Assembly: GCF_988243305.1 (NCBI RefSeq)
Contig: NZ_OZ547136.1
Length of the DNA stretch: 64,000 nucleotides
Direction: 5' to 3' (one strand)
Position 1 is the first letter of the stretch. Every line of letters begins with the position of its first letter. Positions 1-60,730 of the stretch are shown here, piece after piece. Position numbers and translations under genes: made by a program. The notes under the pieces are model-generated. The model had not been told where the DNA came from, ran no database searches, and worked only from the letters and a program-made list of their open reading frames with translations.

Positions 1-150
1 GCATCACTGCTGCCGTGCGATAACGTCTTTGCCATCGAAAGCCGCTGGTATCGCGATAACCCTCTGGTGATCCGCGGACCAGGCGCAGGGCGCGATGTCA
101 CCGCCGGGGCGATTCAGTCGGATATCAACCGGCTGGCGCAGTTGTTGTAA
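1..150 (+). CDS. metL: Bifunctional aspartokinase II / homoserine dehydrogenase II, 3' end only (partial; start lies upstream of window)
   Basis: Frame 1 reads through to TAA at 148-150, giving a C-terminus ...RDNPLVIRGPGAGRDVTAGAIQSDINRLAQLL that I recognise as MetL; position immediately upstream of metF fits E. coli synteny. Confidence 0.8.
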   Translation, partial: ASLLPCDNVFAIESRWYRDNPLVIRGPGAGRDVTAGAIQSDINRLAQLL

Positions 151-1244
151 TCCTGAGCCAGAGAAAGCAGTATTTGCATAACGCGCCCTGCGGAAAGCGG
201 GGTGCTGTGAGTAAATACTGCTTGTTTATGTAGCCAGTCGATAAAATGTCTGCTGGTTGCTAAAGAGAGCATTTCAGCTTTGCTGATATTTCCGCCCGTT
301 AATGCACATACCATTTTACGATTTTTTCCCTGAACCCAGAGTTGCCACTGATTTTTCCACCAGCCGTGATAAGTTGTTCCCTGAAAACGCCAGGGCATAT
401 TATCGGTATCGTCAGCTATTTCCTCTTCAATAAACCAAATCTCACCTTGCTGTTGGCGAAACAGATCAGCCCATGCCGTAATAATGGCACCTCTTAAAAA
501 ACACTCGTGTGAAATTACATGTGTTTTTACTGTAGGGAAGAGAATATTCAGTACTCTGAAATGCCCGTGTGCAGTGATAACCGGACGCAGAATAACACCT
601 TTAGCATTGCGTTTGAGCGCTGCGCTGCCATACTGAATTTCATCAAACTGACTGCGGCGTAGAAATTGTGCTTCGCGCATATCAACGCGTTGTACAATAT
701 TACTCTCGTGTAACTCTGGTTCTGCATTCCCTCTGTATCGATAATGCAGACTTTCTCCAGCCTGATGCTGCGTGTAATTAGTAGAAAGATGAAGAATATT
801 ACCGCGAAGAGCATCAAAACTGATTAAAACATACAGTTTCTGCCCGCTGCTGACTCCCTGAAATGGCACGAGAAAAGCAACCGTTTCGATTATTTCAGGA
901 GGCGTTATTTCTTTCTGATATTGTTTGGGTGTCCATACTTTTTTGCAGTTACGGCATTGAATGCGTTGCGAACCCTGTGGATTGTGACCATAACAAATCG
1001 TATCTGTACCATAACATACCGGGCAAAAATGGCCTTTCTCTGTTGCAAAAGTAGATAAGTGAACTGACAACCAGTCACGAAATTGTTGCTCGTCAAACAA
1101 CGGCGGGTAACTGCCACATGCCCGACAGTGCAATGCCGGATAACCCAGTCGATAGTCTGGCCAGCTGTAATCTGTCGAAGTTGGCTGCCCTAAATTACGG
1201 CAACCAAACGACTTGCAGGCATTAATCGTAAACAGAGTCGACAT
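114..1244 (-). CDS. Hypothetical cysteine-rich protein with two predicted N-terminal zinc ribbons (Cx4C...CxxC and CxxC...CxxC), possibly transposase-derived; function unknown
   Basis: 376-aa ORF with ATG start (1242-1244) and a GGTGA Shine-Dalgarno-like motif 5-6 nt upstream. Cys pairs at residues 10/15, 40/43, 74/77 and 97/100; the segment CPVCYG...GSQRIQCRNCKKVW resembles IS1595/ISXO2-type transposase zinc ribbons. No other motif recognised in the C-terminal ~260 aa. Not part of the K-12 gene order as I recall it. Confidence 0.7.
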   Translation of the reverse strand: MSTLFTINACKSFGCRNLGQPTSTDYSWPDYRLGYPALHCRACGSYPPLFDEQQFRDWLSVHLSTFATEKGHFCPVCYGTDTICYGHNPQGSQRIQCRNCKKVWTPKQYQKEITPPEIIETVAFLVPFQGVSSGQKLYVLISFDALRGNILHLSTNYTQHQAGESLHYRYRGNAEPELHESNIVQRVDMREAQFLRRSQFDEIQYGSAALKRNAKGVILRPVITAHGHFRVLNILFPTVKTHVISHECFLRGAIITAWADLFRQQQGEIWFIEEEIADDTDNMPWRFQGTTYHGWWKNQWQLWVQGKNRKMVCALTGGNISKAEMLSLATSRHFIDWLHKQAVFTHSTPLSAGRVMQILLSLAQDYNNCASRLISD

Positions 1245-1301
1245 ATATCACCAACGATTTCACAAGGTCGTTGATTTTGTCCGGCAACGCTCCCTTGTGG
1301 A

Positions 1302-1317
1302 TGTGATTGCTCTCACA
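1302..1317. promoter_or_regulatory. Candidate CRP (cAMP receptor protein) binding site, perfect consensus palindrome TGTGA-N6-TCACA
   Basis: tgtgattgctctcaca read directly in the divergent intergenic region; centre ~67 bp upstream of the 1377 ATG. Confidence 0.45.
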
Positions 1318-1376
1318 TAAATAACTCTTTCAGAACGTAATGTAGCAATCCTTTATCTCACTGGAAGGGATTGTTT

Positions 1377-2930
1377 ATGAAAATTAAAATGCTTGCTGCG
1401 GGTATCGCATTAACACTGTCGTTTTGGGCTTGCGCCAAAGATGTCACCATCATTTATACCAACGACCTCCATGCACATGTAGAGCCTTATAAAGTGCCGT
1501 GGATTGCTGACGGTAAACGAGATATTGGCGGCTGGGCAAATATCACTACGCTTGTTAAACAAGAAAAAGCTAAAAACAAAGCGACCTGGTTTTTTGATGC
1601 GGGTGACTATTTTACCGGGCCGTATATCAGCAGCCTGACTAAAGGCAAGGCGATTATCGATATTATGAATACCATGCCGTTCGATGCGGTCACTATAGGT
1701 AATCATGAATTTGATCACGGCTGGGACAACACATTATTACAGTTGAGTCAGGCAAAATTCCCGATTGTGCAGGGCAATGTTTTTTATCAGAACAGCAGTA
1801 AATCATTCTGGGATAAGCCCTATACCATCATTGAAAAAGACGGCGTGAAAATTGGCGTGATTGGTTTGCACGGTGTATTTGCCTTTAATGATACGGTATC
1901 TGCGGCAACGCGAGTGGGTATTGAGGCGCGTGATGAAATTAAATGGCTACAACGTTATATCGATGAACTCAAAGGCAAGGTTGATTTGACCGTTGCGCTG
2001 ATTCACGAAGGTGTTCCGGCCCGCCAGTCCAGTATGGGGGGCACAGATGTGCGCCGCGCACTGGATAAAGATATTCAGACGGCAAGTCAGGTGAAAGGGC
2101 TGGATATTTTGATCACCGGGCATGCACATGTGGGTACGCCGGAACCGATTAAAGTCGGCAATACGCTCATCCTCTCCACTGACAGCGGCGGGATTGATGT
2201 GGGCAAACTGGTTCTCGACTACAAAGAGAAGCCGCATGATTTTACGGTGAAAAACTTCGAGCTTAAAACCATTTACGCCGACGAGTGGAAGCCCGATCCG
2301 CAAACGAAACAGGTGATCGACGGCTGGAATAAAAAGCTTGATGAAGTGGTGCAACAAACGGTCGCGAAATCGCCGGTTGAATTAAAACGTGCCTATGGTG
2401 AATCGGCTTCCCTCGGGAACCTGGCGGCGGACGCTTTACTGGTAGCGGCGGGTAAAAACACCCAATTGGCGTTAACCAACTCTGGCGGTATTCGCAATGA
2501 GATCCCCGCAGGGGCGATTACGATGGGCGGCGTCATCAGTACCTTCCCGTTCCCCAATGAACTGGTGACGATGGAGCTCACAGGTAAACAATTACGCAGT
2601 TTGATGGAACACGGCGCAAGTTTAAGTAATGGCGTTTTACAGGTATCGAAAGGCCTGGAAATGAAGTACGACAGCAGCAAACCGGTTGGTCAGCGGGTAA
2701 TCACACTGACTCTGAATGGCAAACCCATTGAAGATGCGACGATTTACCACATTGCTACTCAGAGTTTCCTTGCTGATGGTGGAGATGGTTTTACCGCCTT
2801 TACCGAAGGGAAAGCGCGTAACACAACGGGCGGTTATTACGTTTATCACGCCGTGGTTGATTACTTCAAAGCGGGCAATACCATTACGGATGAACAGATC
2901 AACGGTATGCGCGTGAAAGATATCAAGTAA
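1377..2930 (+). CDS. Secreted (periplasmic) bifunctional metallophosphoesterase / 5'-nucleotidase-family protein (UshA/CpdB-like)
   Basis: ORF track 1371..2930 begins at TTG; ATG at 1377 with GGAAGGGA 8 nt upstream is the more likely start (~517 aa). N-terminal signal peptide [20 protein letters not shown]. Calcineurin-like phosphoesterase motifs [23 protein letters not shown]; C-terminal region with GNLAADALL and NSGGIR typical of the 5'-nucleotidase C-terminal domain. Confidence 0.85.
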
Positions 2931-2986
2931 AAGTACGTATTGAGTTGATTCATCTGTTTGTTACCAGTTGATTTTGCAGATCCAGT

Positions 2987-3016
2987 ATTCGGCCTACGCG
3001 AGGGCGCAGGCCGAAT
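2987..3016. repeat. GC-rich stem-loop (9-bp stem attcggcct / aggccgaat, 12-nt loop); REP-like or terminator-like
   Basis: Inverted repeat read directly; no clear T-run on either side. Confidence 0.35.
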
Positions 3017-3238
3017 CAGATGCCTTAGCATCACCATCCGGTGGCAGGACGTTGTTTTTCGAATAAGCCCAGGTGTCGCTGTGTTGTCAGAATATCAGTC
3101 AAAACGTGCGAGGTGGATTGCGCTATAGAGAAATCTTTTATCGCCTCTAATTAAGATGAGTTTTTTTCAACTTCCCTGATTTTTCCTCACCATCATTGGT
3201 CATTTTTCGGTTGACGCCCCTCGGCTTTTCCTTCATCT

Positions 3239-3270
3239 TTACATCTGGACGTCTAAATGGATAGATGTTC
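3239..3270 (+). promoter_or_regulatory. MetJ operator (tandem 8-bp met boxes) upstream of metF
   Basis: ggacgtct aaatggat agatgttc matches AGACGTCT-type met boxes; position 40-70 bp upstream of the metF start. Confidence 0.6.
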
Positions 3271-3308
3271 ACAACACAACATATAACTACAAGCGATTGA
3301 TGAGGTAA

Positions 3309-4202
<894 letters not shown>

Positions 4203-28780: not shown

Positions 28781-28896
28781 AAAAAAAGCGGATCCTGGAG
28801 ATCCGCAAAAGTTCACGTTGGCTTTAGTTATTCGAGTTGAGAAACTCTCGAAACGGGCAGTGACTTCAAGGGTTAAAAGAGGTGCCGCTCCGTTTC
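28781..28896 (-). ncRNA. oxyS: OxyS small regulatory RNA
   Basis: Minus strand reads GAAACGGAGCGGCACCUCUUUUAACCCUUGAAGUCACUGCCCGUUUCGAGAGUUUCUCAACUCGAAUAACUAAAGCCAACGUGAACUUUUGCGGAUCUCCAGGAUCCGC plus a U tract, matching OxyS as recalled; divergent from oxyR. Confidence 0.85.
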
Positions 28897-33773: not shown

Positions 33774-33901
33774 GATGTATCCTGAAAAATTAAAGTACGC
33801 GGCGATTGTAGGGATTGCTCATCAGATGTCCAGATCTTGATGAATTCCTATTTGTGAGCTACGTCTGGACAGTAACTTGTTACAACCTGTAGCATCCACT
33901 T

Positions 33902-34141
33902 GCCGGTCCTGTGAGTTAATAGGGAATCCAGTGCGAATCTGGAGCTGACGCGCAGCGGTAAGGAAAGGTGCGATGATTGCGTTATGCGGACACTGCCATC
34001 TGGTGGGAAGTCATCATCTCTTAGTATCTTAGATACCCCTCCAAGCCCGAAGACCTGCCGGCTAACGTCGCATCTGGTTCTCATCATCGCGTAATATTGA
34101 TGAAACCTGCGGCATCCTTCTTCTATTGTGGATGCTTTACA
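33902..34141 (+). promoter_or_regulatory. btuB leader containing the adenosylcobalamin (B12) riboswitch
   Basis: Sequence GCCGGUCCUGUGAGUUAAUAGGGAAUCCAGUGCGAAUCUGGAGCUGACGCGCAGCGGUAAGGAAAGGUGCGAUGAUUGCG... matches the btuB leader as recalled and lies directly upstream of the btuB start. Confidence 0.8.
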
Positions 34142-37153: not shown

Positions 37154-38695
<1,542 letters not shown>

Positions 38696-38780
38696 CCTTA
38701 AAGAAGCGTTCTTTGAAGTGCTCACACAGATTGTCTGATAGAAAGTGAAAAGCAAGGCGTCTTGCGAAGCAGACTGACAC

Positions 38781-38856
38781 GTCCCCTTCGTCTAGAGGCC
38801 CAGGACACCGCCCTTTCACGGCGGTAACAGGGGTTCGAATCCCCTAGGGGACGCCA
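38781..38856 (+). tRNA. gltT: tRNA-Glu (UUC) in the 16S-23S spacer
   Basis: GTCCCCTTCGTCTAGAGGCCCAGGACACCGCCCTTTCACGGCGGTAACAGGGGTTCGAATCCCCTAGGGGACGCCA; 76 nt. Confidence 0.95.
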
Positions 38857-39049
38857 CTTGCTGGTTTGTGAGTGAAAGTCACCTGCCTTGATATCTCAAA
38901 ACTCATCTTCGGGTGATGTTTGAGATATTTGCTCTTTAAAAATCTGGATCAAGCTGAAAATTGAAACACTGAACAACGAAAGTTGTTCGTGAGTCTCTCA
39001 AATTTTCGCAACACGATGATGAGTCGAAAGAAACATCTTCGGGTTGTGA

Positions 39050-41953
<2,904 letters not shown>

Positions 41954-42045
41954 ACAACGCCGAAGCTGTTTTGGCGGATGAGAGAAGATTTTCAGCCTGA
42001 TACAGATTAAATCAGAACGCAGAAGCGGTCTGATGAAACAGAATT

Positions 42046-42165
42046 TGCCTGGCGGCCTTAGCGCGGTGGTCCCACCTGACCCCATGCCGAACTCAGAAGT
42101 GAAACGCCGTAGCGCCGATGGTAGTGTGGGGTCTCCCCATGCGAGAGTAGGGAACTGCCAGGCAT
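42046..42165 (+). rRNA. rrfB: 5S ribosomal RNA
   Basis: TGCCTGGCGGCC...GGGAACTGCCAGGCAT; 120 nt. Confidence 0.97.
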
Positions 42166-60568: not shown

Positions 60569-60730
60569 CAAAACCCACCTTAAGGTGGGTTTCGCCAGAG
60601 AATTATCTCTGGTATTCAGAACGCCATTACCGGACTTTGCCTTGACCTTGCGATAATCGCAGGTTGCGGGATGTCTGAATTTCTTCAGTCTGCTGCATCC
60701 TGGAAGATGAGAACATGTGTTCTTATTTTC
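60566..60730 (-). ncRNA. sroH: Candidate small RNA (consistent with SroH) bounded by a sigma70-like promoter and an intrinsic terminator
   Basis: On the minus strand: -35 TTGTAA (plus 60760-60765), 17-bp spacer, -10 TATGAT (plus 60737-60742); about 165 nt downstream is the hairpin aaacccacc-ttaa-ggtgggttt followed by UUGUUAUUUU, overlapping the yjaZ stop. I recall SroH as ~161 nt and adjacent to yjaZ (htrC). Confidence 0.5.

Follow-up and report, generated by a model that had tools for sequence, protein, structure and literature searches.

ZnRNH, a probable domesticated IS1-like transposase and candidate CRP-coupled regulator of nucleotide and nucleoside scavenging in Escherichia coli and its relatives

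ZnRNH, as it is named here, is a zinc-ribbon/RNase H-like protein of 376 amino acids encoded at positions 114-1244, on the minus strand, of a 64,000-nucleotide stretch of Escherichia coli DNA (the window; contig NZ_OZ547136.1, NCBI RefSeq assembly GCF_988243305.1). The gene is labelled in RefSeq as a 'hypothetical/cytoplasmic protein'. The analysis makes it very probable that ZnRNH is a non-mobile, transposase-derived protein that lacks the Asp-Asp-Glu (DDE) catalytic triad and is functionally tied to nucleotide scavenging. With moderate confidence, and from computation only, ZnRNH is further proposed to be a domesticated IS1-like transposase that acts as a CRP-coupled regulator of nucleotide and nucleoside scavenging. 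The main clues to this function are the link to a neighbouring 5'-nucleotidase gene and a box-CRP module, neither of which featured in the first-pass annotation of the sequence.

Results

A conserved box with fixed spacing to a CRP site

The divergent partner of the ZnRNH gene is an exported metallophosphatase/5'-nucleotidase gene (517 amino acids; 1377-2930, plus strand; alternative TTG start at 1371), the product of which is a UshA/CpdB paralogue and matched no equivalog model. The 126-bp divergent intergenic region was strongly conserved among four enteric genera. It includes a 26-bp palindrome, ACCAACGAtttcacaaggTCGTTGAT (1250-1275), referred to here as the 'AYCAAC box' and regarded as a candidate operator, which is composed of two inverted AYCAACGA half-sites (ACCAACGA-N10-TCGTTGAT) and lies 6 bp from the ZnRNH ATG. 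The region also includes a CRP site with perfect consensus half-sites, TGTGA-N6-TCACA (1302-1317), the centre of which (1309.5) is 59.5 bp from the start of the box. The AYCAACGA half-sites were kept in E. coli, Salmonella, Citrobacter and Klebsiella (one arm reads TTAACGA in Klebsiella), and locus L009 retained ACCAAC alone. A consensus promoter scan of positions 1-3400 found no sigma-70 match, and a candidate -10 hexamer for the 5'-nucleotidase gene, TAATGT (1338-1343, plus strand), was therefore read by eye, with conservation in the four-genus alignment as a guide. With TAATGT as the -10 element, the CRP site would have a class II position near -41.5, and the palindrome would span about -101 to -76.

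The same arrangement was found in the vibrios, the loci of which were gathered by a genome-collection scan with a vibrio sub-alignment. A 20-bp motif (consensus ACCAACACAAAAGGTAACTC) was present upstream of the nucleotidase gene; 19 of the 20 upstream regions scored 19-28 bits, whereas shuffled sequence reached 16.6 at most. The motif starts 60 index positions before the centre of the CRP site in 18/20 regions and 59 in one, an offset identical to that of the E. coli palindrome (59.5 bp). In the one locus left, the start codon had been miscalled; the module was found there as well in a later scan.

A control scan for the module was performed across 578 kb of non-redundant loci and the entire 64-kb window. 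The sequence A[CT]CAAC was found at the exact offset at 23 of 230 CRP-like sites, compared with 0.22 expected, and each of the 23 is located beside a family member. The module was present at the same offset beside paralogues, namely those next to a nupC-like gene (L002) and a deo operon (L052) and, twice, the Salmonella paralogue (L041). Variants were observed at this offset beside a nucleoside phosphorylase gene (TTCAAC, L045) and the Vibrio taketomensis nucleotidase gene (AGCAAC, L044). As orthologous promoters are non-independent samples, it is the five to seven independent clades, which differ in their target genes, that carry the argument for the module. In the divergent arrangements, the module lies within ~50 bp of the start codon of the family member (5-20 bp in five loci and ~50 bp in L052).

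Other identities of the box were considered and rejected. The palindrome did not stand up as a hairpin in RNA or as a translational operator, since the minimum-energy fold leaves it out (z-score -0.56), and the one G-U-compatible change, in Klebsiella, was a single case. The sequence was unfit for a second CRP site or a CytR octamer (GTTGCATT), and the integration host factor (IHF) consensus (WATCAANNNNTTR) fitted some of the vibrio boxes only, both as judged by eye from the consensus sequences.

Palindromes resembling the PurR box (GCAAACGTTTGC, 0-2 mismatches) were identified upstream of the nucleotidase gene in L012, L013, L014, L020, L025, L031, L032 and L035, where they either immediately precede the CRP site or lie ~30 bp ahead of the start codon; they suggest that a LacI-family repressor may exert additional control. 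At the locus of the Salmonella paralogue (L041, 5014-6000), two box-CRP modules were observed, one by the family member and one by the porin operon. These are ~800 bp apart, the intervening DNA is inserted-looking, and IS3-family (rve) genes are present nearby.

Neighbouring genes across clades

The divergent ZnRNH/5'-nucleotidase pair was found in Salmonella, Citrobacter and Klebsiella, as well as in a metagenomic relative (40% identity), and a 5'-nucleotidase gene also adjoins the family member in L009, L010 and L044. Within the Vibrionaceae and Psychromonas, 22 of 24 loci have the orthologous nucleotidase gene directly upstream and co-oriented, the two exceptions being truncated. The partner 5'-nucleotidase measures 516-523 amino acids across orders, and the vibrio pair is operon-like, with gaps of ~10-100 bp.

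The neighbours of the distant clades (20-40% identity) were nearly always nucleotide or nucleoside scavenging genes. The family member stands beside a nupC-like transporter and a nucleoside phosphorylase gene in the nupC clade, and a nucleoside phosphorylase gene is likewise adjacent in the phosphorylase clade. A Tsx-like channel and a sulfatase/phosphodiesterase-like hydrolase accompany the Tsx clade, to which the E. coli paralogue between mokC and nhaA belongs (414 amino acids, 26% identity; L037, E. coli CP099174.1); we take this cluster (mokC-nhaA; the dnaJ-nhaA paralogue) to be absent from K-12. In the porin clade (the Salmonella paralogue, L041), the adjacent genes encode a porin, a class II phosphodiesterase and a 5'-nucleotidase of the e(P4) type that scored above the curated cutoff. 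The deo clade adjoins a full deo operon, together with genes for adenosine deaminase and TatD and for a nucleoside ABC transporter of the Bmp type. Since these neighbours are non-homologous enzymes and transporters of one pathway, a pathway regulator fits better than an enzyme-specific partner.

At one metagenomic locus (L007, 314-1225), a gene for an Rpn/YhgA-like protein (Transposase_31, itself a family derived from transposases) stands beside nucleotidase/Tsx genes.

Zinc ribbons and probable descent from an IS1-type transposase

The open reading frame at 114-1244 was borne out on the minus strand, with an ATG start and a stop codon at 114-116. Conservation was counted in a 51-sequence family alignment with relatives down to 20% identity, in which the N-terminus was kept (M1 50/51, N8 46/51, C10 47/51). 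The four Cys pairs, previously read as two zinc ribbons, are present and conserved in the alignment. Zinc ribbon 1 (amino acids 8-45; 1110-1223, minus strand) holds C10, C15, C40 and C43, which were kept in every ungapped row, and is modelled by AlphaFold2 (AF2) with a beta-hairpin at 26-40 at a predicted local distance difference test (pLDDT) score >95. A connecting helix, assigned from the AF2 secondary structure (amino acids 52-70; 1035-1091, minus strand), precedes zinc ribbon 2 (amino acids 72-104; 933-1031, minus strand; C74, C77, C97 and C100), which is of the IS1 InsA type according to the profile matches. The Cys residues were kept in 47/51 sequences for C10 and C15 (the others being gaps), 48/51 for C40 and C43, 40/51 for C74, 49/51 for C77 and 51/51 for C97 and C100.

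The first-pass annotation had likened ribbon 2 to that of IS1595/ISXO2-type transposases. The likeness held at the level of the IS1/IS1595 N-terminal type (NCBIfam IS1_IS1595_Zn, NF050000; E 1.8e-4, 22 bits, below the curated cutoff of 28), but the closest match was of the IS1 InsA type, with Pfam Zn_ribbon_InsA (PF03811) found at E<=1e-3 in 8/51 family members (best 1.4e-7). Kinship to IS1595 itself was not upheld: Zn_ribbon_IS1595 (PF12760) was matched in just 5/51 members, at E 0.0036-0.1, and no DDE Pfam family, including DDE_Tnp_IS1595, was matched in any of the 51. The relative is IS1. Other weak ribbon matches of the window protein were to Pfam Zn_ribbon_InsA and Dof, and to a PHROG transposase over amino acids 74-106. 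PDB sequence matches to C2H2 zinc fingers were discarded as spurious and cysteine-driven.

When the family profile was compared with IS1 InsAB' (query sequence verified against K-12 IS1A), a probability of 96.4% and an E value of 1e-9 were obtained, and ribbon 2 and the following segment of the long relatives aligned with the InsA zinc finger and helix-turn-helix (HTH). In the AF2 model of a Vibrionaceae relative (P0165), three helices (108-165) are present between ribbon 2 and beta-1. The same interval in the E. coli clade is a mere 13-residue linker, the HTH having been deleted in the window protein and in the entire enteric clade. Given the InsAB' profile alignment and the HTH helices of the long relatives, the ancestral architecture is predicted to be that of a fused IS1-type transposase to which one further zinc ribbon had been added at the N-terminus, that is, in order, the extra ribbon, an InsA-type zinc ribbon, an HTH and an RNase H-like catalytic domain. 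The ZnRNH family has lost the DDE triad, the terminal inverted repeats and mobility, and the Escherichia/Salmonella/Citrobacter/Klebsiella clade has also lost the HTH.

Compared with the defining features of an IS1 element, ZnRNH retains the InsA-type ribbon, which (with the HTH in the long relatives) is homologous to InsA; the HTH (in this clade), the DDE triad, the terminal repeats, the frameshift and multiple mobile copies are absent, and ZnRNH is single-copy at a fixed locus. It differs further in the extra N-terminal zinc ribbon and in a beta insertion with a GWWxxxW motif, and its C-terminal domain has no significant sequence match to InsB. The box beside the start codon, with its CCAAC core, recalls an IS1 end, where the left and right inverted repeats (IRL and IRR) share CCAACTTAYTGAT. 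This likeness to the inner IS1 ends spans ~5-8 bp and may be due to chance; it is treated as a lead only.

An exhaustive search of 1.8 billion representative proteins placed the family in 119 clusters, with full-length relatives of 370-570 amino acids. The named members belong to the Enterobacterales, the Vibrionales and a few other Gammaproteobacteria (Psychromonas, Celerinatantimonas and Alginatibacterium). Database labels of family members (P0276-P0286 and the AFDB matches) included 'IS1 family transposase', 'transposase', 'cytoplasmic protein' and 'lactate dehydrogenase', the last of which looks like a propagated annotation error.

The C-terminal domain

The C-terminal domain had been described as uncharacterised. 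This was correct with regard to known families, as no Pfam, NCBIfam, PHROG or PADLOC family was matched over amino acids 110-376, but the domain could be placed structurally. The AF2 model of ZnRNH, with the family alignment as input, reached a pLDDT of 94.6 and a predicted template modelling (pTM) score of 0.93, and in this model the domain has an RNase H-like transposase/integrase fold, with the strand/helix order b1-b2-b3-a1-b4-a2-b5-a. The predicted RNase H-like core (amino acids 116-263; 456-899, minus strand) comprises b1 118-128, b2 135-144, b3 150-155, a1 183-196, b4 217-219, a2 221-235, b5 241-245 and a3 248-257. It is followed by a four-stranded beta insertion, identified from the model and the alignment (amino acids 266-316; 297-449, minus strand), with the conserved GWWxxxW motif (294-300), and by a C-terminal helical region (amino acids 318-376; 117-293, minus strand) with conserved Y366 and N367. 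The Trp-rich stretch noted earlier is real (amino acids 285-303), with W295, W296 and W300 kept in 45-50 of the 51 sequences. The 50 best matches listed by Foldseek against AFDB50 were all members of the ZnRNH family itself. The comparison with IS1 InsB gave an hhalign probability of 0.25%, and the C-terminal domain is therefore not assignable to IS1 by sequence.

In agreement with the first-pass annotation, no DDE triad was found in the C-terminal domain across the 51-sequence alignment. E/D247 is the sole universally acidic column, with D/E201 in 44/51 and D/E144 in 38/51 sequences. T/S121 occupies the position on beta-1 where the first Asp would be expected, and R220-P221 follow beta-4. The conserved residues of the core are T/S121, N156, Y168, R197, D/E201, Y205, P221, H228, H246, E247 and R251; of these, H228 and R197 never vary, and H246, E247 and R251 rarely do. 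The conservation of T121, N156, Y168, R197, D201, Y205, H228, H246, E247 and R251 suggests that the old active-site region is still in use, for a ligand or for a non-canonical activity.

Copy number, position and selection

The ZnRNH gene was present in 1841 of 5426 complete E. coli genomes, at one copy per genome (1842 places). Its position between metL and metF is shared by Escherichia, Salmonella, Citrobacter and Klebsiella. The gene is under purifying selection, with a ratio of nonsynonymous to synonymous substitution rates (dN/dS) of 0.14. No terminal inverted repeats were found flanking the gene, as had been reported. Matches in the plasmid and phage collections were mislabelled chromosomes, chromids or chromosomal contigs, all classed as non-mobilisable, and the gene was not found on genuine plasmids or phages in these collections. 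The features of a domesticated transposase were thus all observed, namely transposase-derived domains without transposon ends, single-copy syntenic orthologues and purifying selection. The earlier suggestion of a fixed, possibly domesticated or DNA-binding relative rather than an active insertion sequence (IS) is supported by the single copy, the metL-metF slot, the absence of repeats, the dN/dS value and the loss of the triad.

Two allele classes were distinguished in E. coli, one with 95-99% nucleotide identity in ~1170 genomes and one with ~80% in ~670. Between the classes, protein identity was 76% (285/376, computed), with ~91% by eye over the N-terminal ~110 amino acids and ~70% over the C-terminal domain. 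The box/CRP region was nearly identical between them. In the second class (L054, NZ_CP196249.1), three 5'-nucleotidase paralogues are present around the ZnRNH gene.

Organisation of the locus and other features of the window

The gene order in the window is metL, the ZnRNH gene (minus strand) and the 5'-nucleotidase gene, followed by metF and katG. The metL 3' end (1-150, plus strand; stop at 148-150) converges on the ZnRNH gene, and the reported overlap of the two 3' ends was confirmed at 37 bp (114-150). On comparison with K-12, homology ends one base beyond the metL stop codon (window 151). The two-gene segment (152-3161) is absent from K-12, where a 197-bp spacer with a palindrome like the repetitive extragenic palindromic (REP) elements is found instead (L049, K-12 4132269-4132465). 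Because homology breaks at window 151, the last 12 codons of the ZnRNH gene are metL 3' sequence common to all E. coli.

An imperfect hairpin with 27-nt arms (74% complementary) was observed at 165-223, within the ZnRNH 3' coding region and 15 nt past the metL stop codon, and may be a terminator for metL that lies inside the convergent gene. A 13-bp inverted repeat (ATTCGGCCTACGC/GCGCAGGCCGAAT) at 2987-3016, ~57 bp past the nucleotidase stop codon, is probably a terminator or a REP-like element. No Rfam family was matched in positions 1-3400. Elsewhere in the window, ordinary E. coli features were identified, including OxyS (28787-28896), a cobalamin riboswitch (33887-34076), an rrn operon with tRNAs (37154-42163) and sroH (60570-60730). 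Neither ZnRNH nor its neighbour matched any anti-phage defence-system model in PADLOC.

Discussion

In the favoured reading, a domesticated IS1-like transposase has become a sequence-specific DNA-binding protein that regulates the scavenging of extracellular nucleotides and nucleosides, and it would operate as follows. The N-terminal zinc-ribbon region of ZnRNH (with the HTH in the long forms) would bind the A[CT]CAAC box, which in E. coli would be the palindrome at 1250-1275. From a box 59.5 bp upstream of the centre of the CRP site, ZnRNH would act with cyclic AMP-CRP on the adjacent scavenging promoter, the predicted target in E. coli being the promoter of the exported 5'-nucleotidase gene (1377-2930). 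Cooperation with CRP is suggested by the fixed spacing between the box and the CRP site. In divergent arrangements with the box right next to the ZnRNH start codon, ZnRNH may also regulate itself, in the same way that InsA represses from the IS1 end. The former catalytic domain would probably serve in oligomerisation and possibly in the sensing of a nucleoside or nucleotide. ZnRNH binding to the box and its cooperation with CRP are inferred, as would be any ligand and the direction of regulation.

Several observations weigh against this reading. As the HTH used by IS1 InsA has been lost, DNA binding in the E. coli clade would rest on the zinc ribbons alone. The architecture of the box also varies by clade, being a 26-bp palindrome in the enterics and an ACCAA-N5-TTGGTAAC-like sequence in the vibrios, and for this reason a single recognition mode is not established. 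At one locus of the Tsx clade (L037), the box is degenerate and offset by 1 bp, whereas L007 carries an AACAAC variant at the right offset; L050 is without the module; and no CRP-like site from which to look for the box was found in L008. The L050/L051 (P0181) and L008 (P0148) clades are also without nucleoside or nucleotide genes nearby, and may have a different role; their neighbours encode MatP, ferritin, a Lon-like protease and a radical SAM protein. A different factor that happens to co-occur with the family could be what binds the box, and PurR-like boxes together with CRP sites could suffice to account for the regulation of the vibrio nucleotidase genes. Some of the conservation may likewise be due to CRP itself or, in the vibrios, to a PurR-like factor. 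Lastly, the DDE positions were mapped by secondary-structure order and not by superposition, and the conserved polar residues H228, H246, E247 and R197 at the former active-site positions could reflect a retained non-canonical enzymatic activity.

This last point leads to the view that ZnRNH is a transposase-derived protein with a non-canonical nuclease or nucleotide-processing activity, exerted through H228, H246, E247 and D201 in place of DDE, that functions in salvage rather than in regulation. We consider this unlikely, although the invariant H228 and R197 and the nearly invariant H246, E247 and R251 lie at or near the active-site positions of the RNase H fold, the fold is typical of nucleases and transposases, and the neighbours are nucleotide catabolic enzymes. 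Only one universally acidic residue is left, the partner enzymes are exported while ZnRNH lacks a signal peptide and is built on modules of the DNA-binding type (zinc ribbons and HTH), and, within E. coli, divergence is faster in the C-terminal domain than in the N-terminus, which is unusual for a catalytic core. The presence of a box at a fixed CRP phasing would also be left unexplained. The box is equally unaccounted for if ZnRNH stays in the cytoplasm as a partner of the 5'-nucleotidase and, for example as its inhibitor, its chaperone or an 'immunity' protein, guards the cytoplasmic nucleotide pools before the enzyme is exported. There is a classical cytoplasmic protein inhibitor of the E. 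coli 5'-nucleotidase, and the tight pairing with a 516-523-amino-acid enzyme across orders, operon-like in the vibrios, would suit such a role. However, family members in the paralogous clades have partners that share no homology (an e(P4) phosphatase, a nucleoside phosphorylase, a nupC-like transporter and a deo operon), and a specific protein-protein inhibitor is disfavoured because it would not be transferable between them. Together with an architecture that is that of a DNA-binding transposase, this makes a partner role quite improbable.

It is also conceivable, if rather unlikely, that ZnRNH is a domesticated transposase with an unrelated role, that the AYCAAC box belongs to another shared regulator and that the neighbourhood reflects mere co-inheritance. 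The link between box and protein is one of co-occurrence alone, and in the vibrios the box lies upstream of the nucleotidase gene and does not adjoin the family member. Against this, the module was confined to the vicinity of family members in 578 kb, follows the paralogues to different target genes and stands close to the start codon of the family member in the divergent loci, and the form of the box changes along with the loss of the HTH. An active or recently active IS of an unrecognised IS1-related type is already contradicted by the data and can hardly be entertained: the transposase fold, the InsA-like N-terminus and the naming of some relatives as 'IS1 family transposase' in databases are outweighed by one copy per genome, fixed synteny in four genera, purifying selection and the absence of terminal repeats, of a DDE triad and of genuine plasmid or phage carriage.

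The proposed regulator can be compared with CytR, which in E. coli and Vibrio counters the CRP-dependent activation of nucleoside catabolism genes and acts at deo, cdd and nupG. The target sets are shared physiologically (deo, nupC, tsx-like, nucleoside phosphorylase and nucleotidase genes), and the candidate operator of ZnRNH likewise stands at a fixed distance from a CRP site. However, CytR is a LacI-family protein to which ZnRNH is unrelated, the ZnRNH box is unlike the CytR octamer (GTTGCATT), only one CRP site is evident, and the mechanism of ZnRNH is a predicted one.

Domesticated transposases that serve as DNA-binding regulators include the plant FHY3/FAR1 proteins from Mutator, the bacterial TldR from TnpB, and TnpA-REP/RAYT. 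Such regulators are well known in eukaryotes; to our knowledge, few bacterial examples have been described. RAYT has been called the first prokaryotic domesticated transposase (PMC8266576). ZnRNH resembles these proteins in being transposase-derived, immobile, syntenic under purifying selection and, as proposed, in the reuse of a DNA-recognition module, and differs in its origin from a bacterial DDE (IS1-like) transposase and in that its regulatory role is predicted. Literature searches found no described bacterial regulator derived from a DDE transposase, and no paper on the ZnRNH family, the locus or the Salmonella locus tags. A bolder and more doubtful proposal, which we put forward tentatively, is that ZnRNH represents a family of bacterial transcription factors that would be the first to stem from a DDE (IS1-like) transposase, with an operator (the AYCAAC box) descended from the ancestral IS end, cooperation with cyclic AMP-CRP at 59.5 bp over an unrecognised regulon for extracellular nucleotide and nucleoside scavenging in the Enterobacterales and Vibrionales, and a dead pocket that acts as a nucleoside or nucleotide sensor.

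Two thirds of the length of ZnRNH has no Pfam domain, and the protein is present in one third of complete E. coli genomes, as well as in Salmonella, Klebsiella, Citrobacter, Vibrio and Photobacterium. The 5'-nucleotidase locus has never been studied in K-12 because it is absent from that strain. If the favoured reading is true, the function of this uncharacterised locus would be explained, a new regulator and promoter architecture would be added to the classic CRP/CytR nucleoside regulon, and the family would provide a clear bacterial case of a transposon end and its transposase turned into an operator-regulator pair.

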